A stretch of 36,043 nt of DNA from a virus (lineage: Duplodnaviria > Heunggongvirae > Uroviricota > Caudoviricetes), in the IMG/VR virus record IMGVR_UViG_2693429599_000012, positions 1 through 36,043 of that record; one strand, given 5' to 3'. Below, piece by piece: positions 11,610-36,043 of this stretch (position 1 is its first letter; each line of letters begins with the position of its first letter). Position numbers and translations under genes: made by a program. The notes under the pieces are model-generated. The model made no database searches. It was given only the letters and a program-made list of their open reading frames with translations, and was not told the origin of the DNA.

Positions 11610-13610
11610 ATGCTTAAATTTCGCCGCGAACTTAACGGTTACGGTGGAGTTATTAACGAAGGGCATAACGATCAATACGAATTTGAAATTGCTTTCTCCA
11701 GTGAACAGCCTTATCAGCGCCAATTCTGGGATGAGCAAAATCAAGAAATGGTGGTATTAGATGAAATTCTGGTACATACACCGGAAGCGGTTGATCTGTC
11801 TCGTCTGAATAATAACGCTCCGTTGCTGTTTAATCATAATTTCGATAATCACATTGGCGTCGTTTGTAACGCTCGAATCGATGCGGATAAAGTAGGCCGT
11901 GCGACCGTTAGATTCTCTAAGCATGGCACTTTGGCTAATGATATTCGCAATAAAGTCATTGAAGGTACGATGGAAAAAATTTCTGTCGGTTATGACATTA
12001 AAGAATATCACATCGATTATGCCAAAGGACAATTGATTGTTACTAAGTTTGTTCCTTTCGAATTAAGTTTTGTTACGGTCCCGGCGGACGATTCGGTCGG
12101 TTTAAATCGCTCTCTAAATACTATCACAGTTAATTTGGAGGCTAAACGCGATATGACTAAAGAACAAATTGAAGAAATCAAAGAAGAACAAGAATCCGCT
12201 CAGGTTGAAGAAACTCCGGTAGAAGAAAATAAAGAATCGGAAGTAGAAGAAACTCAAGAGCGCCAAGTTGAAGAGAATGAAGAAAATGAAAATCTCGAAG
12301 ACGGAAAAGACGCTGAACATCCTGAAAGTGTTGATGATGATAGTTCAACTGTTCGGGAAGCAGAAGAAGTAAAAGAAGAACGTGAAGCCGCTCCGGTTGA
12401 AGAAGAAAAAACCGAGGAAGTGGCTGAACGTTCCGAAGAAGACGAATTAGAAATCCGCGAGATCGCGCGGGAACTAAATATTGACGACGAAGAATTAAAA
12501 CGCGCATTGGCAATTAAAGACATGACGCCGGAAGCATTCCGCACTAAGGCACTAAATAACATTACCAATGCTCAACGTAATAACGAACAAATTAAGGAAT
12601 CTAAAATGGAAAAAACTTTTGACCTGAACAACGTAATTCGCTCTCTGGTAGATGGTGCTGCTCTGGGTGCTAACGAAGCCGAGTTTTCTGCTATGGCTGC
12701 TGGTGCTGCAATGCAGCGTGGTCGTGCTGCTCGTGGTGGCTCTGTATTCGTTCCGACTGCTGCTATGCGTGCTGCTGCTGATGGTAACACCAAAACTACT
12801 CTGGAAGCTGTAACCGACGAAAAACTGCTGAATGATTCCTATGTAGCGATGCTGTTACCGGAATCCGTTCTGGGTCGTCTTGGTGTGAAAGTCCTGTCTG
12901 GTCTGACTTCGCCGACTGCTATTCCGAAAATGACCGCTTCCAGCGTTGAATCTTTCGGCTTCGTTGATGAAAACGGTGCTGCACCGGAAGGTAAAGCAGA
13001 ATTTGCAAACGTGAAAATGGCTCCGAAAACTTTTGCTGGTGGCAACCCGATCAGCCGTCAGTCTCTGAAAACCGTTCCGGGCATCGCTACCCTGATCACT
13101 GATCACATTAACCAGGCTGTTCGCATCAAACTGGAACAACTGATTCTGTCTGATAAAGATAATGCTCGTGGTCCGGCTGGTGTGATTAAACAACTGGTTG
13201 ATGCAAGCCGTGTTGAGAAGAAAGCTGCTTTCTCTTACAAAGACTTCCTGAAAGAAATCGCTAAACTGACCGACGCTGGCGTTCCTGCTCAGGCGATCAA
13301 GTTTGCGATGAGCGGTGCAACTGCTGCTGAACTGGAATCTACCCTGAAAGATAACGGCGTTTCCGGTTATATCATCGAAAACGGTAAACTGGCTGGTTAC
13401 GAAGTAGTTACTTCTGGTGTTATTCCGGTAGACCACATCGTTCTGGGTGACTTCTCCGCTATTACCATCGGTGAATGGGGCGGTCTTGAGCTAGATCTGG
13501 ACGATTCAACCTACAGAGCACAGGGCGCGATCGTTCCGCGTATCTGGGTAGATCTGGATTATGTTGTTACTCAGCCGGAAGCTCTGAAAGTTCTTCACAT
13601 CTCCGAATGA
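11610..13610 (+). CDS. Fused prohead protease (HK97/U35-like), acidic scaffold-like linker and major capsid protein
   Basis: N-terminal ~170 aa carry protease-like motifs (ISVGY, ELSFVTVPADDSVG); residues ~180-300 are a highly acidic, repetitive linker; the C-terminal ~350 aa look like an HK97-fold capsid protein. Confidence 0.75.
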   Translation: MLKFRRELNGYGGVINEGHNDQYEFEIAFSSEQPYQRQFWDEQNQEMVVLDEILVHTPEAVDLSRLNNNAPLLFNHNFDNHIGVVCNARIDADKVGRATVRFSKHGTLANDIRNKVIEGTMEKISVGYDIKEYHIDYAKGQLIVTKFVPFELSFVTVPADDSVGLNRSLNTITVNLEAKRDMTKEQIEEIKEEQESAQVEETPVEENKESEVEETQERQVEENEENENLEDGKDAEHPESVDDDSSTVREAEEVKEEREAAPVEEEKTEEVAERSEEDELEIREIARELNIDDEELKRALAIKDMTPEAFRTKALNNITNAQRNNEQIKESKMEKTFDLNNVIRSLVDGAALGANEAEFSAMAAGAAMQRGRAARGGSVFVPTAAMRAAADGNTKTTLEAVTDEKLLNDSYVAMLLPESVLGRLGVKVLSGLTSPTAIPKMTASSVESFGFVDENGAAPEGKAEFANVKMAPKTFAGGNPISRQSLKTVPGIATLITDHINQAVRIKLEQLILSDKDNARGPAGVIKQLVDASRVEKKAAFSYKDFLKEIAKLTDAGVPAQAIKFAMSGATAAELESTLKDNGVSGYIIENGKLAGYEVVTSGVIPVDHIVLGDFSAITIGEWGGLELDLDDSTYRAQGAIVPRIWVDLDYVVTQPEALKVLHISE

Positions 13611-15420: not shown

Positions 15421-18400
15421 ATGCAGTCGATCCAATTTAAACGAACTAATGTTTCTGGCAAAAAGCCAACGCCGGAACAATTACAGGTCGGTGAGGTGGC
15501 AATCAACCTTAAAGACCATGTTATTTTTACCAAAGACCGAGATCATGAAGTAGTTCAAATCTCTGTTTCTCCTGAAACTCACGCGGCACTAGAATCTAAA
15601 GTTGATGCTAACAAACAAGAATTGGATAGCACAATTGCAGTAAATGACCGCAATATTCACGCTAAAGTAGATGAAATTAAACAAACTACTGATTCTACTA
15701 TCGCAGCAAATCATGCAGAAATTAACAATAAAGTTGATGTAATTAAACGCGAAACCGACGCGACAATCGAAGCTAATAAAAATAAAGCTGCTTCCGATCT
15801 TGCTGGTGTTAAAGCTGAATTGTCGGATACCATCAACGCTAATAAAAATGCGGCTGCTGTAGCAACTCAGGAACTGGACACCCGCATCAATAAAAAAGTT
15901 GATGATATTAAATCCCGTACAGATGCAACCATCGCAAGCAATGACAAAGCAATCAATGACAAAGTTGATTTGATTAAGACAGAAACTGACCGCACTATCG
16001 CAGCAAATAAAGTCTATGCGGAAAATCAGTTAACTGACACCTACAATAACCTTACTGGTGTGATTGCAGCCAATAAGCAAGAGGCAGCGGATAACGTTGC
16101 GGCATTAACCCGTGATGTTGAAGCCAAAAATACAGCAATTCATAGCAAAGTTGACAATAACAAGTCTTACACTGATTCTGAACTGGCACGTTTAGAAAGC
16201 CGTATTGATGCAGCCGATGGATCTGCTGATGGCAAGTACATCAAAAAACACGTAAACACTTATACTGATGGTTATTTGCTGTCTAAGACCGCAAACTATT
16301 TTGATGATCCAAATGCGCGTAATCTTGATTACTTTGGTGCATTCCGCATGAATGACCTGGCGGGTCATATTGCAATGATCTTGCATGTTCCGCATCCATC
16401 TGGTGTTAATCATGCTCGTGGCTTTGAGTTCACTTATGGGTCTAATCCGGTTCATACGGTAAGAACATACGGCTATGATGAATTGGGTCATTTGGCATAT
16501 TCTCACCGCATGTATCATGAAGGTGATAAACCTACTCCTGCCGAAATTGGCGCATATTCGAAAGCAGAAATTGACCGACTGTTCCAGAAGACGCTTAATT
16601 TTGGGATCGAGGGTGGTTGGTTTAAACTAGGCACTTTGACAATGCCACAGCAACACGGTCGTAGTGCTAAGATCCGCTTAGTTGGTGGTAACGGTTATAA
16701 CGTCGGGATGAATGGACAAGCCAATATTATCGAATTGGTGATTCGATGCGGCAACAATAGCCCGAAAGGTGTTGTATTCAATGCGTATTATACTATTTGG
16801 CATTATGAACAACATTTTTGCGCTATTCCAACCGATGGCGACAATTACGATCTTTACGCTTACTACGGTGCACATACAGGATTTGTTTTAGCAGAATATC
16901 AAGTTTCTTCCGGTGGTGTTTCTTTAAACCTGTTGGATACTCCTGAATATCTGGGTGGTGAAAAACCTGTTGCAGATGAAATTTTTGATGCTCTTAACAT
17001 TTCATCGTTCAATAACTTTAGCAACCGTGGAACGTTAAATTTTGCGGGAAACCATCAAGGCCAATACGACATTGAGCATTTGAACGAACAACAAACAAAT
17101 GCTAAGAAAATGTTGCGTCGCTTCCGTAGTTCTGCTCCTGCCACTATCTGGCACGAAAGTGTTGATGACCAAAATTATCGTCTTGCTACTGGATATACCG
17201 ATGTAAACCAACAATTATTGCTTTCAGTTGCGACCGGTTTGCATATTCGTAGATTGACCATCGATGGTGGCTTAGGTTCCGGTTCTAATGCTGGTATTGA
17301 TATTCGTCGAGGACCAAACGAAGCAAGCCATTTTAATTTCATGGATTATCGCACTGGACAAGATGTTCGTAATGGCTGGTTTGGTTTTGGTGATTTGACG
17401 ACCAAAGATTTTATTTGGTGGAACGATAACGGTCAAAACTCTATAAACCTGATTGAAGATGGTGAATTACATATTACTGGTGGTAAAGGCCAGAAAATTG
17501 TAATGAATAGCGAAGTTGCATTATCTGAAAATGCTCGTTTGGCTGTCAAAGGCGGTAACTATGGTTTGATGTTACGCAATGATGGTTCTAGCTTCCATAT
17601 TCTTACTACCGATTTAAAAGATTCTTTTGGTAGTTGGAATAATCGCAGACCATTTAGTTATGATTTCGCCGAAGGTGGATTAGATCTAGGTGGTACTGAA
17701 ACTGCTCGTTGTTTGCATCTGGGGATCGATGGTAGTACCCGCATCGAAGATAACTTAGTTTTCAGAGCGGGATCACGTCAATCAATGGACTATATTGAAA
17801 TGATCCATTGGGGTAACAGTAATACAGGACGCAACAACGTTTTGAGTATGCGGGATTCCAAAGGATTCTTGGCTGAATTTGAACGTGTAGGCGGGACCAA
17901 CGGCGTTAAAACCAGATTCTTTGGTGAAACCTTCACTGACGGTACATTATACCTAAATCAGATGAATAATAGCTCTGAACGATTCTCTATCAATAATTGG
18001 GGAAATTCAGAAGTTGGTCGCGCGGCAGTGATGGAAGTCGGTGATTCCAAAGGTTATCACTTCTATACGGAACGTAGGACAGATGACACCGTTTTGTTTG
18101 ATGTATCCGGTTCTTTGACCGTGCATGGACCTAACGGAATAACCGTCAAAAACTCAACTGGTGCACGCCATATCTGGTTTAGAGATGATAGCGATACGGA
18201 AAAGGCTGTTATCTGGGCTACAGATGAGGGTATGTTACATATACGAAATAATCATGAGGGTTCATTTGCTCATCACTTCCAGGGCGCAATGATTAAACTG
18301 GAAGGGCGTGTTCCTTATGCCGCAGATCAAGGACTTATCCGTGGTGAGGTTTCTGGTGGTGCATATGTTGCATGGAGAGACCGACCTGCTGGTTTGTTGG

Positions 18401-18951
18401 TTGACTGTCAACAAAGCGTTGATAGTGCTCATGCTATTTGGAAAGCGGTTGATTGGGGTCGTCAATATATCGCAGCAATGGATGTGCATTGTCCCGGTGA
18501 TGGTAATAATACTGCGGCAGCGGTTCTTCATGTTCAGGCTGCTGATTATCAATTCCATGCAAGCGGAGAATTTCATGCCAGTGGCAACGGAAACTTTAAC
18601 GATGTGTATATTCGTTCTGACCGTCGTCTGAAAATTAACGTTGAAGACTACGAAGAAAATGCGGTAGATAAGGTAAATAAACTCAAAGTTAAAACCTACG
18701 ATAAAGTTAAATCTCTTAATGACCGAGAAGTTATAGGTCATGAGATTGGTATTATCGCACAGGATTTACAAGAGGTATTACCGGAAGCTGTTAAAACCGC
18801 AAAAATTGGTGGTCTTGATAACCCAGAAGAAATTTTAACAATTTCAAACTCCGCAGTGAACGCGCTTTTAATTAAAGCGGTCCAAGAAATGAGCGAAGAA
18901 AATAAACTTCTTCGTGAACGTCTTGCTGCAATTGAAGCTAAATTAGGGTAA
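15421..18951 (+). CDS. Side (L-shaped type) tail fiber protein with C-terminal intramolecular chaperone / peptidase S74 domain
   Basis: 1176 aa; N-terminal KRTNVSGKKPTPEQLQVGEVAINLKD; internal ~20-aa tandem repeats (KVDxIKxxTDxTIAAN, 4-5 copies); C-terminal ~120 aa YIRSDRRLKINVEDYEENAVDKVNKLKVKTYD...LLRERLAAIEAKLG is typical of S74 autoproteolytic chaperone domains. Confidence 0.8.
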   Translation: MQSIQFKRTNVSGKKPTPEQLQVGEVAINLKDHVIFTKDRDHEVVQISVSPETHAALESKVDANKQELDSTIAVNDRNIHAKVDEIKQTTDSTIAANHAEINNKVDVIKRETDATIEANKNKAASDLAGVKAELSDTINANKNAAAVATQELDTRINKKVDDIKSRTDATIASNDKAINDKVDLIKTETDRTIAANKVYAENQLTDTYNNLTGVIAANKQEAADNVAALTRDVEAKNTAIHSKVDNNKSYTDSELARLESRIDAADGSADGKYIKKHVNTYTDGYLLSKTANYFDDPNARNLDYFGAFRMNDLAGHIAMILHVPHPSGVNHARGFEFTYGSNPVHTVRTYGYDELGHLAYSHRMYHEGDKPTPAEIGAYSKAEIDRLFQKTLNFGIEGGWFKLGTLTMPQQHGRSAKIRLVGGNGYNVGMNGQANIIELVIRCGNNSPKGVVFNAYYTIWHYEQHFCAIPTDGDNYDLYAYYGAHTGFVLAEYQVSSGGVSLNLLDTPEYLGGEKPVADEIFDALNISSFNNFSNRGTLNFAGNHQGQYDIEHLNEQQTNAKKMLRRFRSSAPATIWHESVDDQNYRLATGYTDVNQQLLLSVATGLHIRRLTIDGGLGSGSNAGIDIRRGPNEASHFNFMDYRTGQDVRNGWFGFGDLTTKDFIWWNDNGQNSINLIEDGELHITGGKGQKIVMNSEVALSENARLAVKGGNYGLMLRNDGSSFHILTTDLKDSFGSWNNRRPFSYDFAEGGLDLGGTETARCLHLGIDGSTRIEDNLVFRAGSRQSMDYIEMIHWGNSNTGRNNVLSMRDSKGFLAEFERVGGTNGVKTRFFGETFTDGTLYLNQMNNSSERFSINNWGNSEVGRAAVMEVGDSKGYHFYTERRTDDTVLFDVSGSLTVHGPNGITVKNSTGARHIWFRDDSDTEKAVIWATDEGMLHIRNNHEGSFAHHFQGAMIKLEGRVPYAADQGLIRGEVSGGAYVAWRDRPAGLLVDCQQSVDSAHAIWKAVDWGRQYIAAMDVHCPGDGNNTAAAVLHVQAADYQFHASGEFHASGNGNFNDVYIRSDRRLKINVEDYEENAVDKVNKLKVKTYDKVKSLNDREVIGHEIGIIAQDLQEVLPEAVKTAKIGGLDNPEEILTISNSAVNALLIKAVQEMSEENKLLRERLAAIEAKLG

Positions 18952-18989
18952 TTGGAAAGCGGGGAGAAATCTCCGCTAAGGATTCTTAT

Positions 18990-19286
18990 ATGGGATATTG
19001 GGTAAGTAGTGAAATTAATACTAAAATCGATGCTTTAAAATGGCATGTATTTGATATTCCTAACGGCTATGGTACTGCTCGTGCTGGTGTCGCTGTAATG
19101 CGTCATAATGCTGGTGGTGGGTGGTCTGATGCACATATTAACGTAGATGGTTTGACCGTTGCTCGTCGTCGTGGTGGGACCAATTGGGGATCTACTATAA
19201 ATTCGTTTGTTCCTGCTGGCTGCACCGTCTCCTTTGGTTTAGGGGGTGAAGGTGGTGTTGAATATTTTAAATTCATGGAGTTTTAA
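18990..19286 (+). CDS. Small protein, paralog 1 of 3 (98 aa), unknown function
   Basis: AAGGA RBS; shares W..FDIPNG(Y/W) and a C-terminal TVSF.LG...YFKF motif with the next two genes. Confidence 0.6.
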   Translation: MGYWVSSEINTKIDALKWHVFDIPNGYGTARAGVAVMRHNAGGGWSDAHINVDGLTVARRRGGTNWGSTINSFVPAGCTVSFGLGGEGGVEYFKFMEF

Positions 19287-19288
19287 TT

Positions 19289-19594
19289 ATGGCTGGATGG
19301 ATAAATCAAAGAATGTCAAACGCTATTAGTATTTGGGCTAATGGTGGATATTTTGATATCCCCAACGGTTGGGTCACTGATTCATGCGGAATTGTCTTTG
19401 CTCATATGGAAGCCATTAACGGTGCTGGTGATCTTGATTCTGAATTGGCTGTAAATGGATTGATTGAATCAGGCCATCATGCTGGTGATGCTGGGAGTTG
19501 GGGTGCTAGTTCTTTAGTTGGCGCTGGTGCTACCGTTAGCTTTACATTGGGTAAAGGTAGTTTGCATTATTTCAAATTCAGGAGAATGCACTAA
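19289..19594 (+). CDS. Small protein, paralog 2 of 3 (101 aa), unknown function
   Basis: GGAG RBS; start 3 nt after the stop of paralog 1; YFDIPNGW and ATVSFTLGKGSLHYFKF. Confidence 0.6.
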   Translation: MAGWINQRMSNAISIWANGGYFDIPNGWVTDSCGIVFAHMEAINGAGDLDSELAVNGLIESGHHAGDAGSWGASSLVGAGATVSFTLGKGSLHYFKFRRMH

Positions 19595-19896
19595 TGGCAT
19601 TTTGGGTAGATGGCGCTTTGGGGAATAGGGCGGGTAAAGCAAATCAAGGATGGTTTGATATTCCTAACGGTTGGACAGCCGACGCTTTCGGGACTATTTC
19701 ATTCTGTGCTCATTCTTCCGGTGGTGGCGGCGGTGACTCTGAATTGTTTATTCATGGTTTTTGTGTTTCTGGAAGCCATAAGGGTCATGATTGGGGACAG
19801 ATCCATTCTTGTATTGCACCGCAAGGAGCAGTAATTACAGTTAGCACAAATAGGGGGATCGCTCATCTTCGTTATAGACGTTTGAGCAATCGCTAA
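19594..19896 (+). CDS. Small protein, paralog 3 of 3 (100 aa), unknown function
   Basis: AGGAGA RBS; start overlaps the stop of paralog 2 (TAATG); WFDIPNGW motif; Gly-rich SSGGGGGD. Confidence 0.6.
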   Translation: MAFWVDGALGNRAGKANQGWFDIPNGWTADAFGTISFCAHSSGGGGGDSELFIHGFCVSGSHKGHDWGQIHSCIAPQGAVITVSTNRGIAHLRYRRLSNR

Positions 19897-19950
19897 ATAA
19901 ATAGAATTACGGGTATGTACCCTATTGTTTAAAATAGAAGGAAAAGAATA

Positions 19951-28300: not shown

Positions 28301-29134
28301 GACGGATCCGAAGTTTGTCCGTTTGGCATCGAAGATAACAAGGTTTATCTCGATAATGCAATGATTCGTAATGCTGCAATTGGCACAGCCCAGATTAGTG
28401 ATGCGGCTATTACCACGGCTAAGATCGGCACAGCCCAGATTAACGGTGCTCACATCCAGCACGCACAGATCGGAACAGGTCATATTATTGATGGCTCTAT
28501 CGATAATGCTAAAATTGGTAACTATATCCAGTCTTATAACTGGAATGGTAACGATGGATGGTATATCGGGAAGGATGGCACTTGTCATTTTAGACACGCT
28601 AACATTCGTGGTCATTTGGTGGCTGATTCCGGCGAAATGAACAACGTAACGATTAATTCAAGTTGCCGCATTTTGGGTATGCTTGATGCTAATCAGGTGC
28701 GTGGTGACTTCGTGAAAGCTATTGGTCGTCGATTCCCACATTGGGACGAAAACCCATCATTGGGCTATCCCGGTTATCCGCAAGGTACAATCACTGTTCG
28801 AATTGAAGATGATCACCCGTTTGATCGTCAGATTATCGTTCCGGCTATTAGCTTTGGTGGTCTTAATGCGCGTGAAGGCTCGAATAACAATACTTACTAT
28901 GATAACTGTCGCTTGATTGTTCGCAAGAACGGTGCTGAATTATATAACCGTGCATATGGTAGACAGACTGGATTGTATAGTGCTGTTATTGATATGCCAG
29001 CCGGACACGGACCAGTTACGCTAACTTTTGAAGTAAGTTCAAGCGCAATCAACAACTGGACTCCCAGCACATGGATCAGCGATCTTTCTGTAATTGTTAC
29101 TAAGAAAGCCGCTACGGGTATTTCTGTTTCTTAA
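25358..29134 (+). CDS. Tail tip host-specificity protein (lambda J-like), N-terminally fused to a gpI-like segment
   Basis: 1258 aa. C-terminus (DDHPFDRQIIVP...DMPAGHG...KKAATGISVS) parallels the lambda J C-terminus (DDHPFDRQIVV...DMPAGRG...KKQALGISVV). N-terminal 90 aa (Gly/Ala-rich hydrophobic, then APKTPKVQ...VLPVLFG) resemble the C-terminal part of lambda gpI. Confidence 0.85.
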   Translation: MGFEVLVGAVIAGASAGMAAAATFSVMTAVAIGMAAGAMTLIASTVGAPKTPKVQSPDNAVTLGTSNDPKTVLPVLFGTTRTGAICVYKAISQRENNKLVQIFAIAEGEIDHFKALHIDNKNVLISQNMTIRDGILDKGNIKDEYRKVLEVEFRTGKNPNTALDLAKHHLGADWDDRYQGNGIATMCIVLRRDDKSLAAGVDILQPNSQVAVDVMGLKIRNLETNAIEASTNGVDQIFHYLTNEKYGLSVPIENINVDSFLKVRKQVRQMDLHSNGACDPNASFKENLTSLMQTFGGVMFESFGRITLKLDAPDIVKHTFNEDNIMMGKVSLKTGGTNGYFNTINAMYQEPSIDYSEQMLRYPADAENDATIRQDGRIIAKDIEYRFVKSKAQIDKLASIERNKSRITQVISFMTTDAFTAEVWDVISVTYDELKLNNSLWRITAIDRSIDSGIAGMMTITATEYNSQVYTDLNYAATPDNRPTGLPDSMTVQKPTNFRIKATGETIHGKNVTLTWDAPEDFNRYGFQIDYRVSGSPNWIKLGQTSQQIFNINALAKDRSYDYRVCAFGIIARSEWVELVNQNPEVTYELPTPVIRIKNQGSTPGTFEGNDLIIEWENQQALDVVINGEANKFSDLFEAYIIKVTNKAGKSIQYRTRDPESWIYTLDMNQFNGLSRELTVEVSVKGYNNSESAPARLVAINPQHKPMKGFSARGGFNTAFVSWADDVEHDYAGSIIQYATDNTFSDARAVTTNSVSHTSFDLADGDYYIRGAHYDIFGMDDAVWSEPYFMQMKSTISWDDQDKEALEDLIGLQDRLDETIADAIAQAGANADAKIDAMHKQITTETGQTVQASANTLKSLIATSEQASSTKIDQVKAELKGDITKEVSASATTLKQAIATSEAASASKIDQVRVEMDGKIAGVNQEADVKIDALKGTINSKYNLAVNADGRVAGIHMSATNDPAEPTRIIFTADKIAVAPQDGSEVCPFGIEDNKVYLDNAMIRNAAIGTAQISDAAITTAKIGTAQINGAHIQHAQIGTGHIIDGSIDNAKIGNYIQSYNWNGNDGWYIGKDGTCHFRHANIRGHLVADSGEMNNVTINSSCRILGMLDANQVRGDFVKAIGRRFPHWDENPSLGYPGYPQGTITVRIEDDHPFDRQIIVPAISFGGLNAREGSNNNTYYDNCRLIVRKNGAELYNRAYGRQTGLYSAVIDMPAGHGPVTLTFEVSSSAINNWTPSTWISDLSVIVTKKAATGISVS

Positions 29135-29152
29135 AATTTAATTTTTATAATT

Positions 29153-29194
29153 AATCCCGCTTAATTCTTTGTGGTTAGGCGGGATTATTTTTAT
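29153..29194 (+). terminator. Putative terminator after the J-like gene
   Basis: AATCCCGC-18 nt loop-GCGGGATT followed by ATTTTTAT. Confidence 0.45.
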
Positions 29195-29239
29195 CTAAAT
29201 AATTCTGCCATTAAACTATATAAAAATATCGGGGGCGTA

Positions 29240-29518
29240 ATGACTGAAATTATATATGGCGGTATCGGTGTTATCGCCTTAATTTGTGGTGGGCTTTGGA
29301 GACTCCACCGAAATCAATTAGCAACTGAAAATAGATTGTCGAAATTGGAATCCAGCGACGCATTGTTAAACCAGAAGTTTGAGACGATGCAGAATAACCA
29401 TACTCAGATTGCTGAACGTGTTTACCAAATGGAACAAACACTACACGGTATAGAGAAGAAAGTGGTTGCGATGGACGCCAAATTTGACCAAGTTCTCGAC
29501 ATACTCAAACAAAAATAA
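29240..29518 (+). CDS. Single-pass membrane protein with coiled-coil C-terminus (93 aa); holin or i-spanin-like candidate
   Basis: ATG at 29240 (ORF track begins at GTG 29171); N-terminal hydrophobic segment IIYGGIGVIALICGGLW followed by a heptad-rich region. Confidence 0.4.
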   Translation: MTEIIYGGIGVIALICGGLWRLHRNQLATENRLSKLESSDALLNQKFETMQNNHTQIAERVYQMEQTLHGIEKKVVAMDAKFDQVLDILKQK

Positions 29519-29536
29519 TAATAAAGGGGTGAATAT

Positions 29537-29707
29537 ATGAAGAATAAACTTAAGAAATATTTTGGTTATCTCTTGATTGTCGCCCTCACTTATAACGTAG
29601 CTATTAGACCTCTGCTAACGTCCTTTGGGCTTGAACTCCCGGCTATGACCGTGGATGAACAATTGCTAAGGACACTGGCGGGGGTCTTTTCGTTATTAGG
29701 GGGCTAA
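29537..29707 (+). CDS. Small hydrophobic protein (56 aa), holin-like candidate
   Basis: AAGGGGTGA RBS; hydrophobic YFGYLLIVALTYNVAI and LAGVFSLLGG; stop 1 nt before the next start. Below the 60-aa ORF track cutoff. Confidence 0.35.
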   Translation: MKNKLKKYFGYLLIVALTYNVAIRPLLTSFGLELPAMTVDEQLLRTLAGVFSLLGG

Positions 29708-29708
29708 C

Positions 29709-30392
29709 ATGGCAACCAGTACCAATAAACGAAACGCTCTAAGGACTAAGAAAGCGTTACGGCAATGGTCTGAAAAGGCAACCGATACATTCGAAAGGGC
29801 ACTAGGGGAAGGGGCGATCTTTGCTTCTCGTGCACTCCAGAAGAAGATTAACAAGAATGTTGATAGACCTACTCGATGGACTCAGCAAGCTGTAGGTAAT
29901 ACCAACTACAAGAACCGATCAGGGACGAGACACCAAATCTTCATCAAGGGCGCAAGGGATAAGGACAAGAAGATCGGCAGTCAGGATGACTATCTGAAAC
30001 ACTATTTCGATGGGGGAAAAATCAATAAGCTAGTTCCAATCGCCAACGGTAAGGTCTTAGACGCCCACGGGAACATTAAGGCCATCAAAGGCGGTAAGAT
30101 GATGCGTAACCTCGAAAACGGCAACTTCATCAAGGTAGAGAACAAGGAAGGGACTTTTATCATGAAGAAGTACAAGCCTAAGAAATCCCGAACCAAACGC
30201 GCTAGGAATGGATCGGCGGTGGCAAAACGTCGCTTAGAGAAACGCATACAGAAACAGAGCAAGCGAATTGTTGCCGTTAAATCGGATAAAATTTCTACTC
30301 GTTATTCGACGCTAGGATCGTGGGAAAGCAACGAAGCAATGATGCTTGAAAACATCAATAAGCACATTAAATCGCGCATGAAATACGTTTAA
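29709..30392 (+). CDS. Hypothetical highly basic protein (227 aa)
   Basis: Lys/Arg-rich throughout (KKYKPKKSRTKRARNGSAVAKRRLEKRIQKQSKR); no family recognised. Confidence 0.5.
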   Translation: MATSTNKRNALRTKKALRQWSEKATDTFERALGEGAIFASRALQKKINKNVDRPTRWTQQAVGNTNYKNRSGTRHQIFIKGARDKDKKIGSQDDYLKHYFDGGKINKLVPIANGKVLDAHGNIKAIKGGKMMRNLENGNFIKVENKEGTFIMKKYKPKKSRTKRARNGSAVAKRRLEKRIQKQSKRIVAVKSDKISTRYSTLGSWESNEAMMLENINKHIKSRMKYV

Positions 30393-30430
30393 TCCATAAA
30401 TACCCTCATAGAAACTTATGGGGGTATAAC

Positions 30431-30778
30431 ATGGCTAAAAATATTTTCACTGAATTTCCTACTTATCCGGTCGATCAGCTTTCCGGTATTTTTATTAATG
30501 GCATTAGCCCAGAATCAATGACACATGATTTTGAGGCGAAGAGAGTTAAACATAAACAATATAAAGAATGTATCCGCGATCATGAAAAAGGGACCGTGTT
30601 TTGTGTCGCTACATTGGCTAAACGTCCTAAGTATCGTTTTCGTGTAGGACAAGAAGTCGATGTAGTTAATCCTTATAGCTTTAACTGTCTGGGTGATGCA
30701 CGCGCGGTGTGTGTAGGCACTGCTCCTTATTATATCAAGGGTATGCGCTTTATTGGTTATATCTTCGAAATGATCTAA
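30431..30778 (+). CDS. Hypothetical protein (115 aa)
   Basis: GGGGGT RBS; no recognisable motif. Confidence 0.5.
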   Translation: MAKNIFTEFPTYPVDQLSGIFINGISPESMTHDFEAKRVKHKQYKECIRDHEKGTVFCVATLAKRPKYRFRVGQEVDVVNPYSFNCLGDARAVCVGTAPYYIKGMRFIGYIFEMI

Positions 30779-30787
30779 GGGGGTAAT

Positions 30788-31141
30788 ATGTTAAGTAAGC
30801 ATTTTTCTCGCAAGGAATTTAAATGTAAATGCGGAAAATGTGATTATGATACAATCGACGCTGAATTACTGGTGATTCTTGAGGATGTACGCGAACACTT
30901 CGGGAAACCAGTAATTATTAACAGTGGGAACCGTTGTCCGACTCATAACAAGAATGTAGGCGGTGCAACCAACAGCTATCACGTTCGAGGTCGTGCGGCT
31001 GACATTGTGGTCAAGGGTGTCTCCCCTGATATTGTCCATGCTTATCTTGATGGGAAATATCCTACTCAATACGGCTTAGGAAAATATAAAACCTTTACGC
31101 ATATTGATTCCAGATCGAAAAAATCACGATGGAATGGATAA
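30788..31141 (+). CDS. Peptidase M15-family peptidoglycan hydrolase (putative endolysin)
   Basis: Motif FSRKEF.C.CG.C......SGNRCPTHNKNVGGATNSYHVRGRAADI matches the zinc D-Ala-D-Ala carboxypeptidase-like (M15_3-type) signature. Confidence 0.65.
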   Translation: MLSKHFSRKEFKCKCGKCDYDTIDAELLVILEDVREHFGKPVIINSGNRCPTHNKNVGGATNSYHVRGRAADIVVKGVSPDIVHAYLDGKYPTQYGLGKYKTFTHIDSRSKKSRWNG

Positions 31142-31148
31142 AATTAAA

Positions 31149-31172
31149 GCGCCTCTAGTGGGCGCTTTTTTG
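31149..31172. terminator. Bidirectional terminator between convergent genes
   Basis: AAA-GCGCC-tctagtg-GGCGC-TTTTTTG. Confidence 0.55.
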
Positions 31173-31754
31173 TTAGAATATGCTGGCGACGTTAGCTATA
31201 TTTCTGACCATTTTTTCATTATAAACAAACGTTTCTGTAGCACCTTCTTTAATATCAAAATCACCTTTTACTAGGTTTTTCTTGATAAACAATTCTGCCG
31301 CGTATGCGTCTTTTTCGTCTTGAAATTCGAAAGTCTCGATGATATCAAATTTCATCTTATTCTGGCATCTTAGCTTATGTTTTCTCGTCAACACATTGTG
31401 ACTTACTCCAACCTTACCCACATCACCACACCGCATAACATATAATACTGGTTGCCCATTTTTATATTTGTTGTCATATTTGCTACGATTACACGGGCAC
31501 ACAGTAGGATTATGTAAGAATTGTTTTGCTGTTATATCTCTGATTCTTGCGCAGCTTTCACACTCTAGCACAATACGGCTATTGATTGATTTATACTCAC
31601 CTTTGAATCCGTGATAAATCAAGGGTAAACCCTCGTTTTCAATACGGGTCACGATCCTTGCTTCCATATCAATTGGATGTGATGGCGCTTTGCCATTTTT
31701 GGTGCGGATAAAATTGAACGGGATATCACATGCTTTGCGCACATCATTCATCAT
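31173..31754 (-). CDS. GIY-YIG / T5orf172-like domain protein with Cys-rich N-terminus (homing-endonuclease-like)
   Basis: GTGAGG RBS then ATGATG start at complement 31752-31754. Cys cluster CESCARIRDITAKQFLHNPTVCPC; C-terminal YVMRCGDVGKVGVS...GATETF resembles GIY-YIG motifs. Paralog of the 32283-33281 product. Confidence 0.5.
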   Translation of the reverse strand: MMNDVRKACDIPFNFIRTKNGKAPSHPIDMEARIVTRIENEGLPLIYHGFKGEYKSINSRIVLECESCARIRDITAKQFLHNPTVCPCNRSKYDNKYKNGQPVLYVMRCGDVGKVGVSHNVLTRKHKLRCQNKMKFDIIETFEFQDEKDAYAAELFIKKNLVKGDFDIKEGATETFVYNEKMVRNIANVASIF

Positions 31755-31794
31755 AAAAAACCTCACTTAATTTATCTTATAGGCATTACCTTTA

Positions 31795-32247
31795 ATGTTG
31801 ATGATCGAGTTCGTAGAAACCGAATTAACTAAACTGGCTTCCGAAATGGAAGAAGAAACTCCGGCAGAAGGAACCAGTATTAACGATCTTATTCTGGCAG
31901 CAGACACCGCAGATGATAAAGTGGTATTCGACGAAGTTGATCCGTCTCTGGTTGAAGCAATGAAAGAACCTGAGATCGTCATTGAAGAAACAAAAGAAGA
32001 ATCTCCAGCAGTTGAACCAGTGGTCGAAGAAGTTAAGTCAGATGTTGAAGAAGCACCGGAAGTTAAAGTGGAATCTCCGGTAGCCAACATTTTCTCTGAC
32101 GAAGCAGAGCATCGTTCCCCAGCACATGACACTGATTCATTTTGCGATCTTACTGGCTTCCGTCCGACCATTTGTTTGATCGGTGGCGGTCGTGGTTACT
32201 ACTCCTGCCCGTGGTCTTCAACCATTACAACAAATTTTTCTCAATAA
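31795..32247 (+). CDS. Hypothetical acidic protein (150 aa)
   Basis: Glu/Asp/Pro/Val-rich (EETKEESPAVEPVVEEVKSDVEEAPEVKVE); start codon choice uncertain. Confidence 0.4.
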   Translation: MLMIEFVETELTKLASEMEEETPAEGTSINDLILAADTADDKVVFDEVDPSLVEAMKEPEIVIEETKEESPAVEPVVEEVKSDVEEAPEVKVESPVANIFSDEAEHRSPAHDTDSFCDLTGFRPTICLIGGGRGYYSCPWSSTITTNFSQ

Positions 32248-32282
32248 ATAGTAGTGAACTTATTATTTTCGAGGACACTACT

Positions 32283-33281
32283 ATGAATACTACTTTAGCA
32301 AAGGATATCGAATTTACCGCAAAAAGCAAACGTGCGACCCCTCCGGTCGAATATGAAACCAGAATCATTAAAGTTTGTCAAGCGTATGGATGGTTATACA
32401 GTGGTTTTGTGCTTCCTGTAAAGAAACCATTCCAGAACACCAAAGTTTGCATAGAAGTTAACGGAAAGGTTAAAACGCCATGTATTAGTCATGTTCTAAC
32501 TGGTCAGTTTACTGGCAAAGATAGAGTATCACCGCCTAAGAAGAAGTTTAGATTTACCGAAGAAGAACACTTAGAAAACGCTCGCAAGTTCTACAAGCCG
32601 ATAGGGTGGGATGTGTTAGGTCTGGCTGAACCTTATCAGGGTGTTGACACTAAACTAATTCTTCGTTGTAAGTGCCACGGAAAGATTCACAAGAAAGGTG
32701 ATTTACACAATAACCGCAGACAAGGCGGGTTAACATGCCCTTTGGTTAGGGGTGTACTTAAATCAATTCAGAATGGTAGAAAACAGGTTATCAGAAACAA
32801 GTTTGCACAGCGCCCTATGCACTTTTATCTAATTCGTGTTGGCGAGAAGTTTTTCAAATATGGAATTACCACTCGCAAAGATCCGATGCAACGGGTAAGA
32901 GAACACCAGAAGCACACCAGCGAGAAAATCACCTTTGAATGCTCACATTTGTTTAACATTGGATGGAAAGCTGGTGATTTAGAAATGGGGATTAAAAAGA
33001 ATATTCAGGGCAAGAAAATCCCACGTAAGGTAATGAATAGCGGATTCACAGAAACGCTACCGATTAGCAAGCTGAAAGATGTTAAATCATTCATCAATGA
33101 ATACATCCACACCAACCCATCTAAGCCAATGTATTTTGATGATACCAACGCAATCAATCTGAACAACTACATTAGTGATGAAGACATAGAACGAGATTTA
33201 TCGCAGTGGATGAATGCACCGTTAGCTGATTTAACACCGGAAAACTTAGAACTCGATTTAAGCCCTTTAGAGGCTCTCTAA
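32283..33281 (+). CDS. GIY-YIG / T5orf172-like domain protein (homing-endonuclease-like), paralog of the 31173-31754 product
   Basis: GAGGA RBS before the ATG at 32283 (ORF track extends upstream to 32142). FYLIRVGEKFFKYGIT...GFTETL aligns with YVMRCGDVGKVGVS...GATETF; Cys/His cluster RCKCHGKIHKKGDLHNNRRQGGLTCP. Confidence 0.5.
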   Translation: MNTTLAKDIEFTAKSKRATPPVEYETRIIKVCQAYGWLYSGFVLPVKKPFQNTKVCIEVNGKVKTPCISHVLTGQFTGKDRVSPPKKKFRFTEEEHLENARKFYKPIGWDVLGLAEPYQGVDTKLILRCKCHGKIHKKGDLHNNRRQGGLTCPLVRGVLKSIQNGRKQVIRNKFAQRPMHFYLIRVGEKFFKYGITTRKDPMQRVREHQKHTSEKITFECSHLFNIGWKAGDLEMGIKKNIQGKKIPRKVMNSGFTETLPISKLKDVKSFINEYIHTNPSKPMYFDDTNAINLNNYISDEDIERDLSQWMNAPLADLTPENLELDLSPLEAL

Positions 33282-33296
33282 CGCAATTAAATTCAA

Positions 33297-33326
33297 AAGG
33301 GGTACGAATGTACCCCTTAACTGTTT
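33297..33326. terminator. Putative bidirectional terminator
   Basis: AAGGGGTAC-gaat-GTACCCCTT followed by AACTGTTTTAG. Confidence 0.5.
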
Positions 33327-33354
33327 TAGCTCGTTATACGTCGATTTAGGCCGC

Positions 33355-35034
33355 TTAAATTCCAAATTCCTGTAATGGACCTGGTATTTCCTCTTCTGGT
33401 TTCCAGTTCTTATCTGTCAGCATGTCTAAACATGGATGCAAAACAAGCCCGTTACTTTCCAGAATCTGTCTATCATTGATAGTTTTCAAATCAACGAAGA
33501 TCCGGCCTTTCCTCGGTCCTCTTGAATTTTCTATTACAACTCTCTGGGTCTTGCCATCGATGTATTCCAGTACAAACAAGTTTTTGTACTTGTCAATCCT
33601 GCTACACCCGATCCGTTTTAGAGCTTGCTTAATCTTAAACCGGACCTTAATGCGATCCTCGTTGTAAACATCTTCTAAATCAAATTCTGCGAGCTTCTCC
33701 CAGCCTTGAGAGTCAACAGAATACATTTCCTCTTCTGCCATCTTAATTTGATTGTAGAGTGTTTCACGCTCGCTATTGAGGGTAGTAATCTGATCGGCTA
33801 GCTCCTTCGTTGCTCCTGTCATAGCAGAAAGGGTAATCAGGTTATCAATCTTGCGTGATATTTCATCAATCTGTACTTTCAAAGCCGGAACCGGATTAGC
33901 CTTATCCTCAGCAATCCAGATTTTATCAGCCAGCAATTGCAATACAGCTTTCTCTAATTGATCACCTCGAAAACTCCAGTTTGTATGCACACATGCAATA
34001 CGACTAGAGCGCATTGCATCGCATGAATAACGATATTGGTTAGGACGTTTGTTAGTTCCTTTCACCTTAACCATAGCGGAACCGCAATGTTCACATTTCA
34101 ATAGACCAACACCACTAAGCAAGGGAATAGGTTTAACTTCTTCCTTGTCTCCATAGTTACATGCTCTAACACCAATGCTTTTCTTAAGGTGATAAAACTC
34201 AGCGTCATCTAGCACACGAGGATAATAATCCTTTAACTCATACTTAACGCCATCTACAGAGATTTCCTTGATACCAATCAAAGCGCGGGTATGGAACAAC
34301 CTTTCAATCATTGCCCGTGACCAGTTTGAATGCCTCTTGTGACTTGCGGCTGGTGGTGGTGTGTATGTCGCGTTAAGGTGATCCAGTATCTCGGCGGTTG
34401 ACCGTCCATTCCTGCGTAATTCCACAACTTCCTGAACAATAGGGAAGAAGACCGGATGAGGAAGCACATAACCAGATGTGGTATCAGTCCACCACATATT
34501 CTTTCCAATTTCCTCGATTGCAACAGCCGGATTTTGTGGATTTTCTTGATGAGCTTTAATCTTAATCAATGCGCTTGAGTTAGTACGATTGCGCTTAGTC
34601 TGACTTTCCTCGTTAGCTCTCGCAAACAACATGACACTCAACAGCAAATCAATAGGATTGGCATTAACCGATTCCTTGCTATAGACCTTACCATCCATGC
34701 CAGTTACGATAGTTATTCCCCTACGGATAATCGAGAGAAATAGCTCTTGTGCTTCAATGATGGATTGGCGAGAGATACGGTCTAAGTTTTCCACAACCAG
34801 CCAGCTACCAACCGGAACGGATCGACCAATCTCATCCAGAAAGCGAGATAGTGCACCTGTTCTACTGTTAGCCCCTTTGAATGCAGATACACCAAAATCC
34901 TGATAGCTTGTAACTAGCTCAAGATCATATTTTGCGGCTATCTCTGCGGCTGTTCTCTTCTGGCGTTCATAAGAACTACCATCCGCTTGCTTCATAGACG
35001 AGAAGCGAATATACGAATACAGTTTAGTTTTCAT
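33355..35034 (-). CDS. Large serine recombinase (integrase-type)
   Basis: N-terminal resolvase-type catalytic motif YSYIRFSSMKQADGSSYERQ (catalytic Ser in FSS); recombinase domain; zinc-ribbon-like CEHCGS...YRYSCDAMRSSRIAC; C-terminal coiled coil. Start placed at ATG complement 35032-35034 (the track's 35049 start is TTG). Confidence 0.85.
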   Translation of the reverse strand: MKTKLYSYIRFSSMKQADGSSYERQKRTAAEIAAKYDLELVTSYQDFGVSAFKGANSRTGALSRFLDEIGRSVPVGSWLVVENLDRISRQSIIEAQELFLSIIRRGITIVTGMDGKVYSKESVNANPIDLLLSVMLFARANEESQTKRNRTNSSALIKIKAHQENPQNPAVAIEEIGKNMWWTDTTSGYVLPHPVFFPIVQEVVELRRNGRSTAEILDHLNATYTPPPAASHKRHSNWSRAMIERLFHTRALIGIKEISVDGVKYELKDYYPRVLDDAEFYHLKKSIGVRACNYGDKEEVKPIPLLSGVGLLKCEHCGSAMVKVKGTNKRPNQYRYSCDAMRSSRIACVHTNWSFRGDQLEKAVLQLLADKIWIAEDKANPVPALKVQIDEISRKIDNLITLSAMTGATKELADQITTLNSERETLYNQIKMAEEEMYSVDSQGWEKLAEFDLEDVYNEDRIKVRFKIKQALKRIGCSRIDKYKNLFVLEYIDGKTQRVVIENSRGPRKGRIFVDLKTINDRQILESNGLVLHPCLDMLTDKNWKPEEEIPGPLQEFGI

Positions 35035-35052
35035 ACCATTTCCAAACAAAAA

Positions 35053-35083
35053 CGCCCCTACCGCGTATTATAACGATAGGGGC
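35053..35083 (-). terminator. Terminator-like hairpin between the secreted-protein gene and the recombinase gene
   Basis: On the minus strand GCCCCTA-16 nt-TAGGGGC followed by GTTTTTGTTT; the loop contains TATAAT. Confidence 0.4.
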
Positions 35084-35099
35084 ATTGGTTAGTAAGTCA

Positions 35100-35345
35100 T
35101 TAATATTTCTTTCCAGTTAGTTTTGCATCACGTTTATTAATATCCTCGATATGACTCCATACACACGCAGTAATAAAGTCGTCATCGTCACCAACTCCGG
35201 CAACCTGTGCTAATTCAGTACACAGTTGATTTAAAGAAGGTGCAACGGCAGCACGTTTGACACTATCACCCTGTACATATTGTTCGGCATTCGCAGCACC
35301 AACCAAACCCAGAGCAAGAACAACACCCGCGATAATCTTTTTCAT
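35100..35345 (-). CDS. Small secreted protein (81 aa) with Sec-type signal peptide
   Basis: AAGAGGA RBS; MKKIIAGVVLALGLVGAANA then AEQ (signal peptidase I-like site, no lipobox); mature ~61 aa with two Cys and a DDDD run. Confidence 0.6.
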   Translation of the reverse strand: MKKIIAGVVLALGLVGAANAEQYVQGDSVKRAAVAPSLNQLCTELAQVAGVGDDDDFITACVWSHIEDINKRDAKLTGKKY

Positions 35346-35390
35346 AGTAGAATTTCCTCTTGTTATTTGAATTACGATATATTTATATCG

Positions 35391-35516
35391 TTAAAAGTTA
35401 ATACTAATAATCAGACCAAACACAACCGCGCCAATCAAATCCATCCAGTTAATACACAATCCGCTATATTCTTTCTTGAATGTCTTAGATGAAATGCCAT
35501 CATGAAATTGTTTCAT
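35391..35516 (-). CDS. Tiny hydrophobic peptide ORF (41 aa)
   Basis: MKQFHDGISSKTFKKEYSGLCINWMDLIGAVVFGLIISINF; weak SD-like GGGGTGAG upstream. Below the ORF track cutoff. Confidence 0.3.
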   Translation of the reverse strand: MKQFHDGISSKTFKKEYSGLCINWMDLIGAVVFGLIISINF

Positions 35517-35519
35517 TGC

Positions 35520-35600
35520 TCACCCCATACTAACGACAAGATAAGAAAGACTAATCATAGTTGTGAGACTACCTCCCACGAATGAGATAAAAGCTAACAT
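35520..35600 (-). CDS. Tiny hydrophobic peptide ORF (26 aa)
   Basis: MLAFISFVGGSLTTMISLSYLVVSMG; GGAGAA RBS 7 nt upstream; directly downstream of a terminator-like hairpin. Confidence 0.3.
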   Translation of the reverse strand: MLAFISFVGGSLTTMISLSYLVVSMG

Positions 35601-35614
35601 GTTTGATTCTCCAT

Positions 35615-35642
35615 TTAAAAAGCGGTGGGAATTACACCCACC
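35615..35642 (-). terminator. Terminator-like hairpin downstream of the 35657-36043 gene
   Basis: On the minus strand GGTGGG-7 nt loop-CCCACC followed by GCTTTTTAAAT. Confidence 0.45.
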
Positions 35643-35656
35643 AAATTAGAAATTAA

Positions 35657-36043
35657 TTAAGCGCGAACGATGGTCAGAGTATCCAGCAAACCTTTTTCGT
35701 ATAATTCGAAACACGTTTTATATTGCTCAATCTGGAAACCATAGCGGGTGATCTTATTCAGTAGAATAATCACGGTATTCTCATCTAGGTATTGTCCTTG
35801 CTTACCAATTACATATGACTCGCGGGATAGTCTCAGCTTACGGAAACCTTTAACACCTAATTCCTTAGCCACCGCTTTAATCTCTTTAATCTCACCCTCA
35901 GCAGCTACATATTCAGCGTCGATAATCTCAGGTGATGATCTCAGTGCTACCAGAACTAAGGCCATTGCTTCTTCTTCGGTACGAGCAACACCAGCTTTCT
36001 CGAAAGTCATCTCGCCAAATTTACGAATCATGATATTGAACAT
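35657..36043 (-). CDS. Hypothetical protein (128 aa or longer; may extend past the window edge)
   Basis: ORF reaches the last base of the window with an ATG at the edge; no motif recognised. Confidence 0.45.
   Translation of the reverse strand: MFNIMIRKFGEMTFEKAGVARTEEEAMALVLVALRSSPEIIDAEYVAAEGEIKEIKAVAKELGVKGFRKLRLSRESYVIGKQGQYLDENTVIILLNKITRYGFQIEQYKTCFELYEKGLLDTLTIVRA

Follow-up and report, generated by a model that had tools for sequence, protein, structure and literature searches.

A truncated Krischvirus inh gene between putative homing endonuclease genes in a temperate siphophage of Escherichia coli

Introduction

What are two divergently transcribed nuclease-like genes doing between the endolysin and integrase genes of a temperate coliphage, and what is the acidic open reading frame (ORF) that they bracket? 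Virulent T-even and temperate lambdoid-type phages are usually seen as separate gene pools, tail-fibre swaps aside, and the answer bears on how separate they are. The stretch of DNA analysed, here called the window, is the 36,043-nucleotide IMG/VR record IMGVR_UViG_2693429599_000012, whose gene content identifies it as a temperate siphophage integrated in E. coli. The locus in question (positions 31173–33281) consists of a leftwards-transcribed gene A, a rightwards-transcribed gene B and the acidic ORF between them, together referred to as the cassette.

A sequence-only reading had described two divergent, related genes flanking an acidic ORF, and this arrangement and its coordinates hold, with the gene starts refined to 31754 and 32283. 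It overlooked what matters most about the locus, its connection to virulent T-even phages: judged by nucleotide identity, the bracketed DNA is a piece of the Krischvirus uvsW.1-uvsW-inh-hoc region. The cassette is interpreted here, with a probability of about 0.6, as a T-even homing-endonuclease island in a variable slot of a temperate phage, captured once, inherited or swapped as a unit, decaying, and still exchanging DNA with Krischviruses.

Results

The bracketed ORF is a truncated Krischvirus inh gene

The cassette has three genes or gene fragments:

31173–31754, minus strand: gene A, a predicted free-standing nuclease of 193 aa with a T5orf172/GIY-YIG fold and one CapR-type zinc finger
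31795–32247, plus strand: inh', a truncated copy of Krischvirus inh (inhibitor of prohead protease), matching phrog_1051 at 3.5e-21
32283–33281, plus strand: gene B, a predicted nuclease of 332 aa with two CapR-like repeats, a T5orf172/GIY-YIG-fold domain and an acidic tail

The acidic ORF had been left without an assignable function, and proves to be a truncated T-even head gene. Its near-identical tract (31801–32215, 415 bp) corresponds to nt 145–559 of the 726-nt inh gene, and thus to residues 49–186 of the 241-residue Inh protein; it has 99.5% DNA identity to phage 011D4 and to 58 more Krischvirus (RB49-like) records, 59 in all. The protein identity of Inh' to residues 49–186 of Krischvirus Inh is 99.3%, with the N-terminal 48 and C-terminal 55 residues missing. 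There are no other phage-record matches within 29000–36043, and elsewhere in the window only the tail fibre has one. No Pfam family matches either Inh' or full-length Krischvirus Inh, and a literature search on Inh function found nothing useful.

The truncation appears to be old. In four diverged alleles with 50–70% protein identity (the window, E. coli loci L016 and L017, and Proteus locus L018) inh' starts at the codon for Inh M49, and in three of them it ends at about residue 186–187, the end in L017 lying earlier. The B proteins of E. coli and Proteus elements that also hold inh' are 60–75% identical. Identical truncation boundaries in diverged prophages point to a single capture long ago, followed by descent with the prophage.

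The fragment could itself be functional cargo, acting as a soluble, mis-targeted inhibitor fragment that blocks head maturation of superinfecting T-even phages, with A and B as passengers or regulators. Its reading frame is open in every allele, begins at the M49 codon in four diverged lineages, and is preserved by a 144-bp deletion within inh' of the BS74R-D allele, which is in frame. However, no allele has a Shine-Dalgarno sequence or recognisable promoter for inh', whereas A and B have strong ones. The C-terminal end is variable, the truncation enters an apparently conserved C-terminal region of Inh, and the conserved C-terminal motif is absent from L017 and from the related prophage element PRO_A. 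Other alleles have a hoc fragment or nothing in its place, and no selection in the prophage is needed to explain an open frame if functional phage genes are imported again and again. A cargo role is therefore considered very unlikely.

The slot holds alternative pieces of one T-even region

In this family of temperate siphophages the endolysin and serine-integrase genes flank a variable site, or slot, which the cassette occupies. In the window the slot is delimited as follows:

30788–31141, plus strand: Peptidase_M15 endolysin gene, left flank, outside the cassette (Pfam PF08291, 3.5e-28; phrog_894)
31146–31168: bidirectional terminator hairpin that bounds the cassette on the left, past the endolysin stop codon and at the 3' end of A, with a 9-bp stem and a T-run on both strands
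33297–33318: bidirectional terminator hairpin at the right edge, in the gap between B and the recombinase gene
33355–35034, minus strand: large serine recombinase (prophage integrase), right flank, outside the cassette (Pfam Resolvase, Recombinase and Zn_ribbon_recom; phrog_95, integrase)

Gene A is thus convergent on the endolysin gene and B on the recombinase gene. All slot alleles have common sequence as far as the left terminator, and the right terminator is still present in replaced and 'empty' alleles.

The same prophage adjoins hicB/ydcR in 58 of 5,426 complete E. coli genomes. The full A/inh'/B cassette is present in seven complete genomes; in 11 others A is mostly deleted and the first 105 bp of inh' are gone, and in approximately 17 the deletion is nearly complete, with remnants left. 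At least 10 E. coli genomes, and Salmonella as well, lack inh' and have uvsW.1-uvsW in the interval from the endolysin gene to an A-like gene. In STEC1575 (locus L039, 5214–5618) a Krischvirus hoc fragment of ~330 bp (hoc nt ~655–973, ~70% identity) replaces inh' between an A-like gene and B. Krischvirus genomes have uvsW.1, uvsW, inh and hoc side by side, in that order and orientation, so all of the cassettes sample one T-even region of 4–5 kb. Across slot alleles the uvsW product is 73–85% identical to Krischvirus UvsW, and uvsW.1 is ~99% identical to its Krischvirus counterpart.

Individual alleles vary further. An E. coli prophage from IMG/VR (L031, 2479–4285) has uvsW.1 (~99% to Krischvirus) together with uvsW; Salmonella prophages (L019, 1772–3277) have a full-length uvsW with 73% protein identity; ETEC1738 (L008, 2674–4941) has a uvsW gene split by IS1 and is missing B; and A is absent from the Proteus allele L018. 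In two A-deleted alleles (L002, 2635–3078; L006, 2635–2991) the RefSeq inh' frame starts at an ATG overlapping the endolysin stop codon. This ORF crosses the terminator and an antisense remnant of A, and so more likely reflects misannotation than a coupled gene.

Related prophages thus differ in whether the slot is filled and in which allele it holds, as the sequence-only reading would require. Between near-identical prophages the cassette is swapped as a unit: the flanks have 97–99% protein identity, whereas A has 36%, inh' 67% and B 75%. A and B also turn over independently of each other, and deletions and IS1 insertions are frequent. The family extends over prophages of E. coli, Salmonella and Proteus, and the proportions of full, partly deleted and nearly empty slots (7, 11 and ~17) fit the invade-and-decay life cycle of homing endonuclease genes.

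Sister prophages hold different living Krischvirus alleles

Evidence for recent exchange comes from the centre of inh. Among Krischviruses this acidic centre (nt 251–420) is hypervariable: allele groups have 63–69% identity there, compared with at least 95% in the arms, and nt 560–726 are 100% identical in the four phages compared (L001, L021, L022 and L023). The centre of the window's inh' is of the 011D4 type (100% identity) and that of the sister prophage PE15 is of the G5211 type (99.4%), although the 011D4 and G5211 centres are only 68.6% alike. The PRO_A allele is absent from sequenced phages, being at most 81.6% identical to any of them. The slot-flanking prophage genes and B nonetheless have 99–100% protein identity among the window, PE15 and PRO_A elements. 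Similar patches occur in the uvsW-type alleles: ~250 bp of uvsW.1 in L031 are 98–99% identical to Krischvirus, and ~550 bp of uvsW in ETEC1738 (L008) are 97–100% identical, both against a background of 55–77%.

Different, near-identical phage alleles within sister prophages that have near-identical flanks indicate recent, repeated and independent gene conversion, and the patches are read as conversion tracts. Assembly chimeras are an unlikely source since the patches occur in many independent complete genomes. As far as the sequences tell, the locus is a live recombination interface between temperate and virulent phages. Further inh alleles that are absent from sequenced phages are held by prophage cassettes (L016 and PRO_A), and prophages may act as a reservoir of inh diversity. 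Krischviruses have no cytosine modification, lack the host-DNA-degrading endonuclease IV and are capable of transduction (PMC12115623), so that hybrid molecules would have routes of survival.

These patches also speak to whether the cassette is an inert relic, in which one old illegitimate recombination placed T-even DNA in a prophage and the genes are now decaying, the similarity having no current consequence. The frequent deletions and IS1 insertions agree with decay. But sister prophages could not hold patches that match different living Krischvirus alleles at 99–100% identity unless exchange had been recent and repeated. Both nuclease genes remain intact across genera, their motifs invariant, and conservation is higher in the non-coding DNA before B than in the coding sequence. 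The relic explanation is accordingly exceedingly improbable.

Genes A and B encode predicted nucleases of the T5orf172/CapR branch

RefSeq-style annotation and a ribosome-binding site place the start of A at the ATG at 31754; the ORF list gives 31173–31766 (minus strand), 31766 being an in-frame upstream GTG. Gene B lies in an ORF of 32142–33281 (plus strand) with its real start at the ATG at 32283, and both genes have good ribosome-binding sites. They are free-standing, as the sequence-only reading had it, and the Cys-rich region and Y-...G.TE core that it noticed in both are real. The core motifs are LYVMRCGDVGKVGVS...GATETF in A and FYLIRVGEKFFKYGIT...GFTETL in B, and the cysteines are arranged as CxxC...CxC in A and CxCH...C in B. 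The B protein has CapR-like repeats at residues ~20–75 and ~93–153 (the latter containing the CxCH...C motif) and a T5orf172/GIY-YIG-fold domain at ~179–277. It ends in an acidic, leucine-rich and predicted disordered tail (...DLELDLSPLEAL; residues 321–332, window 33243–33278) that is absent from A and conserved across the B family, even in a 37%-identical homologue in L031. The tail resembles a short docking motif, perhaps for a sliding clamp or another partner.

Pairwise BLASTP similarity of A and B is marginal (E = 0.014, 23% identity). However, both match phrog_681 ('endonuclease') at ~1e-22, and their family profiles align to each other with 96.5% probability (E = 1e-9, 163 columns) across the N-terminus, zinc finger and nuclease domain; on these grounds their distant homology is secure. 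The suggestion that they arose by duplication does not hold for any recent event, given an identity of ~23–28%, independent turnover, and the extra CapR-like repeat and tail of B.

Assignment to the T5orf172 branch of the GIY-YIG superfamily was assessed with the Pfam profiles PF10544, PF13455 and PF01541 at their curated cut-offs. Gene A scores 16.8 bits for T5orf172 (cut-off 20), 16.4 for MUG113 (22.3) and 12.9 for GIY-YIG (22.6), and B scores 13.3 for MUG113 (22.3). PF10544 is matched by the homologues P0020 and P0021 and by the A-like proteins of L016 and L017, and predicted structures of A and B have the GIY-YIG alpha/beta fold. The CapR homology domain (PF21817) scores 26.0 bits in A, above its cut-off of 24.2, and 15.9 in B, below it. 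The GIY-YIG/T5orf172-like character proposed from the letters is thus upheld, by weak domain matches together with the CapR match and the predicted fold.

Six positions are invariant in each family: Y105, K114, G116, R124, E154 and E174 in six A sequences, and Y182, K192, G194, R204, E234 and E257 in 17 B sequences. They line up in the profile-profile alignment. We take the Tyr, K-x-G, Arg and two Glu residues (one of them in G-x-T-E) to be the catalytic set of the family. The zinc finger of A (C65-x-x-C68...C86-x-C88) is also invariant in its family, with a spacing of 17 residues compared with the 24–26 reported for CapR; the corresponding motif of B is C129-x-C131-H132...C152. In the CapR protein of the Vibrio cholerae satellite PLE, the CxxC...CxC finger is required for DNA binding (PMC8096241). 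A and B are best read as free-standing, site-specific DNA endonucleases of the T5orf172/CapR branch of the GIY-YIG superfamily.

A set of 5.8 billion proteins contains 17 clusters of B homologues, each of enterobacterial prophage origin, and a scan of GTDB species representatives with the B alignment found no relative. Distant T5orf172 relatives of A and B detected by tblastn include T5 itself and Krischvirus ORFs at other genome positions, but none of those detected adjoins inh or uvsW.

Predicted T-even-type expression signals precede B

The non-coding parts of the cassette contain three further features:

32243–32250, plus strand: AATAAATA box, a Krischvirus (T-even)-type late-promoter motif upstream of B, which contains the inh' stop codon and is conserved in 10 of 10 cassette alleles
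32248–32284, plus strand: predicted RNA hairpin over the start of B, with arms ATAGTAGTG (32248–32256) and CACTACTAT (32276–32284), −12.8 kcal/mol
31755–31794: A/inh' intergenic region, with a conserved element (minus strand GCCTATAAGATAAAT...GAGG) upstream of A that is kept upstream of A genes 36–51% identical in protein

The box has the form (T/A)ATAAATA, and is a perfect TATAAATA in PRO_A and STEC1575. Krischvirus inh itself is preceded, at a distance of 54 nt, by the same AATAAATA variant, and the four such boxes of an 8.4-kb Krischvirus locus all stand 28–54 nt ahead of gene starts. The box overlaps the 5' arm of the 9-bp hairpin, the Shine-Dalgarno sequence GAGGA (32271–32275) lies in the loop, and the AUG (32283–32285) overlaps the 3' arm. 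The predicted fold has z = −3.0, with one of 200 shuffles equally good. Across 10 alleles eight pairs are kept, with one G-C to A-U compensatory change (in STEC1575), one G-U and one break. The 48 nt upstream of B are the best-conserved DNA of the cassette, at 85–96% identity versus 38–74% for the B coding sequence.

A scan for sigma-70 promoters found no enrichment (5 sites versus 7.5 expected). One candidate overlaps the element upstream of B, where the most conserved bases lie in its would-be spacer. There is no significant RNA structure in the A/inh' intergenic region, and neither a hairpin nor a late box upstream of A is significant (z = +0.19). By motif and folding, the combination of a late promoter and a start-hiding hairpin that is described for I-TevI, I-TevII, I-TevIII, segB and mobE (PMC2988022) is found for B alone.

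The inverted repeat before B could also be an operator, by analogy to I-TevI, which represses its own late promoter via such a repeat (PMC2988022). This raises the alternative that A, B or both are repressors that do not cleave, and instead regulate their own promoters or T-even late and head genes, as PLE CapR regulates its target. Consistent with this are the above-threshold CapR homology domain of A, the conserved inverted repeat with its I-TevI precedent (PMC2988022), and the origin of the neighbouring DNA in a head-gene region. Against it, both proteins keep a full predicted T5orf172 domain in which the presumed catalytic Tyr, Arg and Glu are invariant in both families, and cleavage and autoregulation can coexist. 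Repression in place of cleavage is a doubtful proposition with little probability attached to it.

Discussion

A proposed homing cycle in the lysogen

We infer three steps by which the cassette would act as a homing element: infection-triggered expression, cleavage in uvsW-inh-hoc and templated repair. A Krischvirus that enters a lysogen, or infects a cell together with the temperate phage, would fire the (T/A)ATAAATA box before B with its late transcription machinery. A late transcript beginning a few bases past the box would not include the 5' arm of the hairpin, leaving the start codon free, whereas in longer read-through transcripts the start codon of B would stay blocked. B together with A would then cut phage DNA in or near uvsW-inh-hoc, and recombination-dependent repair could use the resident homologous fragment as template. 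Such repair would produce co-conversion patches and offer the nuclease genes a route into virulent phages. The cassette is most likely a mainly selfish element with the lysogen as its reservoir, and it may also harm the infecting phage.

Several observations weigh against this interpretation. The late-promoter call consists of an 8-bp motif and its conservation, and the hairpin has one compensatory pair only. A and B score under the Pfam cut-offs for T5orf172, MUG113 and GIY-YIG. There is no close relative of either in sequenced T-even phages, the best tblastn match among 50,697 phage records having 24–36% identity, so a T-even origin of the nuclease genes is argued from their position and regulatory signals, not from their sequence. 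IMG/VR scans with the B protein, the B alignment and a 21-mer from upstream of B recover prophage-type contigs only, of ~19–38 kb. The conversion tracts are compatible with transfer from phage to prophage or the reverse. The sequence-only reading had suggested looking for an intact target site in relatives without the genes; the 'empty' sites of OkiPb01713, 266917_2 and ETEC1738 still contain parts of A, inh' or B and are deletion derivatives, not clean sites.

A different beneficiary is also conceivable: the cassette could be a domesticated defence against Krischviruses, in which infection-triggered A and B cut the T-even uvsW-inh-hoc region for the benefit of the lysogen or the temperate phage rather than of the nuclease genes, and the one-sided homology of the resident fragment sends repair astray or poisons it. 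With the late-promoter box and hairpin, B would be expressed in infected cells only. The presumed catalytic residues are invariant over 45–99% sequence divergence, and the B family is known from this prophage family alone and is inherited with it (50–64% identity for B versus 66–72% for the integrase). An intron endonuclease of PhiPA3 is reportedly one precedent for a homing-endonuclease relative in a conflict between mobile elements. Others are PLE CapR (PMC8096241) and Odn (PMC10448857), and the unmodified cytosine of Krischviruses leaves their DNA open to ordinary nucleases (PMC12115623). The idea of an (anti-)defence island, raised by the sequence-only reading as well, gains little from defence-system searches, though. 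In a PADLOC scan (PADLOC-DB v2) A has no match, B has marginal PD-Lambda-1 matches only (~22–44 residues, E ~0.005 and 0.007) and Inh' has one spurious match; nothing convincing was found. Deletions have removed part or all of the cassette in over half of the E. coli copies, and a recognised defence system never occupies the slot, every allele of which is the same kind of T-even-derived cassette. Domesticated defence is improbable on this balance, if clearly the more arguable of the alternatives to a homing island.

A related and speculative claim, to be held no more than tentatively, is that the cassette is an infection-triggered weapon in which the Krischvirus late machinery switches on B, otherwise held untranslated by its hairpin, B and A cut the invader in uvsW-inh-hoc, and the fragment between them is a homology trap refreshed from time to time from the phages met. 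The cassette would then track circulating phage alleles, amounting to a recombination-based, sequence-updating immunity or interference.

Other features of the prophage

The remaining window ORFs include terminase small and large subunits, portal, a protease/major-head fusion, major tail protein, a tape-measure-sized ORF, a tail-tip protein, the M15 endolysin and the large serine recombinase. The fusion is a 666-aa ORF (11610–13610) matching both major-head and head-protease/major-head PHROG families, which suggests a fused protease/scaffold-capsid gene. An Ant/Rha-like anti-repressor gene (5673–6500) lies upstream of the large terminase gene, and two minus-strand ORFs (2239–3243 and 6881–7483) have no family match.

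The side tail-fibre gene (15421–18951, 1176 aa) and three small ORFs after it (18990–19912) also match T-even phages, with 87–89% nucleotide identity over up to 3.4 kb to distal long-tail-fibre (gp37-type) regions; the partners include the Krischvirus-like phages G37-3, phiS and KFS-EC. By these matches it is a second stretch common to the prophage and the same group of virulent phages, and no nuclease gene was seen adjoining the segment (15421–19912).

Significance

The protein family, homing at inh/uvsW and the presence of nuclease genes at exchange boundaries were already known. What is added here is the setting, a temperate prophage whose T-even nuclease locus keeps T-even expression signals, together with direct evidence that it has exchanged DNA repeatedly with virulent phages. 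The locus provides sequence-level evidence that the virulent and temperate pools have recombined recently and repeatedly at a classic homing-endonuclease site, and it suggests that T5orf172/CapR nuclease genes can live in a lysogen and retain T-even expression signals. If the proposed mechanism is true, lysogens would be reservoirs and launch pads of selfish nucleases that shape T-even genomes, and may also gain an infection-triggered anti-phage nuclease. The exchange bears on the origin of allelic diversity in genes for head decoration and accessory functions, inh and hoc among them, and on phage therapy, in that Krischviruses in use can exchange DNA with host prophages.

Comparison with known systems

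The fragment between A and B differs from the T-even Inh protein, an inhibitor of the prohead protease gp21 and minor head protein, in extent and in context. Its homology is confined to residues 49–186 rather than full length, it is without translation signals, and in other alleles its place is taken by a hoc fragment or by nothing.

The position of A recalls the seg genes. T4 segE is an active free-standing GIY-YIG homing endonuclease gene in the gap between inh and uvsW, and targets uvsW (PMC2988022). Gene A lies in the same gap, with uvsW on one side in L019 and L031 and inh' on the other in the window, and so does a seg-like GIY-YIG gene of Krischvirus G5211 (L021, 1950–2681), to which A has no detectable sequence similarity. 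The gap is without a nuclease gene in 011D4, RB49 and Phi1. In G5211 the uvsW-inh intergenic region (83%) and the 5' end of inh (94%) are more diverged than in the other phages. A has in common with the seg genes the predicted GIY-YIG-type fold and co-conversion-like patches in the flanking DNA, and B has the late promoter motif and start-sequestering hairpin of I-TevI, I-TevII, I-TevIII, segB and mobE. Unlike the seg and I-TevI proteins, A and B belong to the T5orf172 branch and have a CapR-type zinc finger (A) or CapR-like repeats (B) in place of their type of DNA-binding module; and while seg genes sit in T-even phages, A and B sit in a temperate siphophage, where their cleavage and homing are presumed.

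The T5orf172/CapR homing endonucleases of lytic phages have one or more CapR zinc-finger repeats plus a T5orf172 domain (PMC10448857), as do A and, with CapR-like repeats, B. Nuclease genes of this kind occur at the boundaries of phage-phage exchange, and flank homing endonuclease gene (HEG) islands, stretches of more than 10 kb that are highly identical in phages dissimilar elsewhere (Barth, Dunham and Seed 2023, PMC10448857). Like them, the cassette has nucleases bracketing a segment of very high identity that is common to unrelated phages, and nuclease content that changes at a fixed position (A at 36% versus flanks at 97–99%). The described islands exceed 10 kb and carry intact essential genes of lytic phages (PMC10448857), whereas the cassette has the identity and the flanking nucleases of such an island at a much smaller size (a tract of 415 bp here and 250–550 bp in other alleles, 0.25–0.55 kb overall) and with truncated non-essential genes. 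Its partners are a temperate prophage and virulent Straboviridae rather than two lytic phages, and, unlike the described islands, it is inherited within a prophage family across E. coli, Salmonella and Proteus.

PLE CapR offers a parallel in lifestyle. It too is a relative of T5orf172 homing endonucleases in an integrated element that meets a virulent myophage; it has the CxxC...CxC zinc finger found in A, and element-phage recombination occurs at such genes (PMC10448857) as at the cassette. PLE is a satellite, whereas the window holds a complete temperate phage. CapR is reported to act as a repressor of the ICP1 capsid operon and was called a domesticated endonuclease by its authors (Netter et al. 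2021, PMC8096241); where it has become a transcriptional repressor, both A and B keep complete nuclease motifs.

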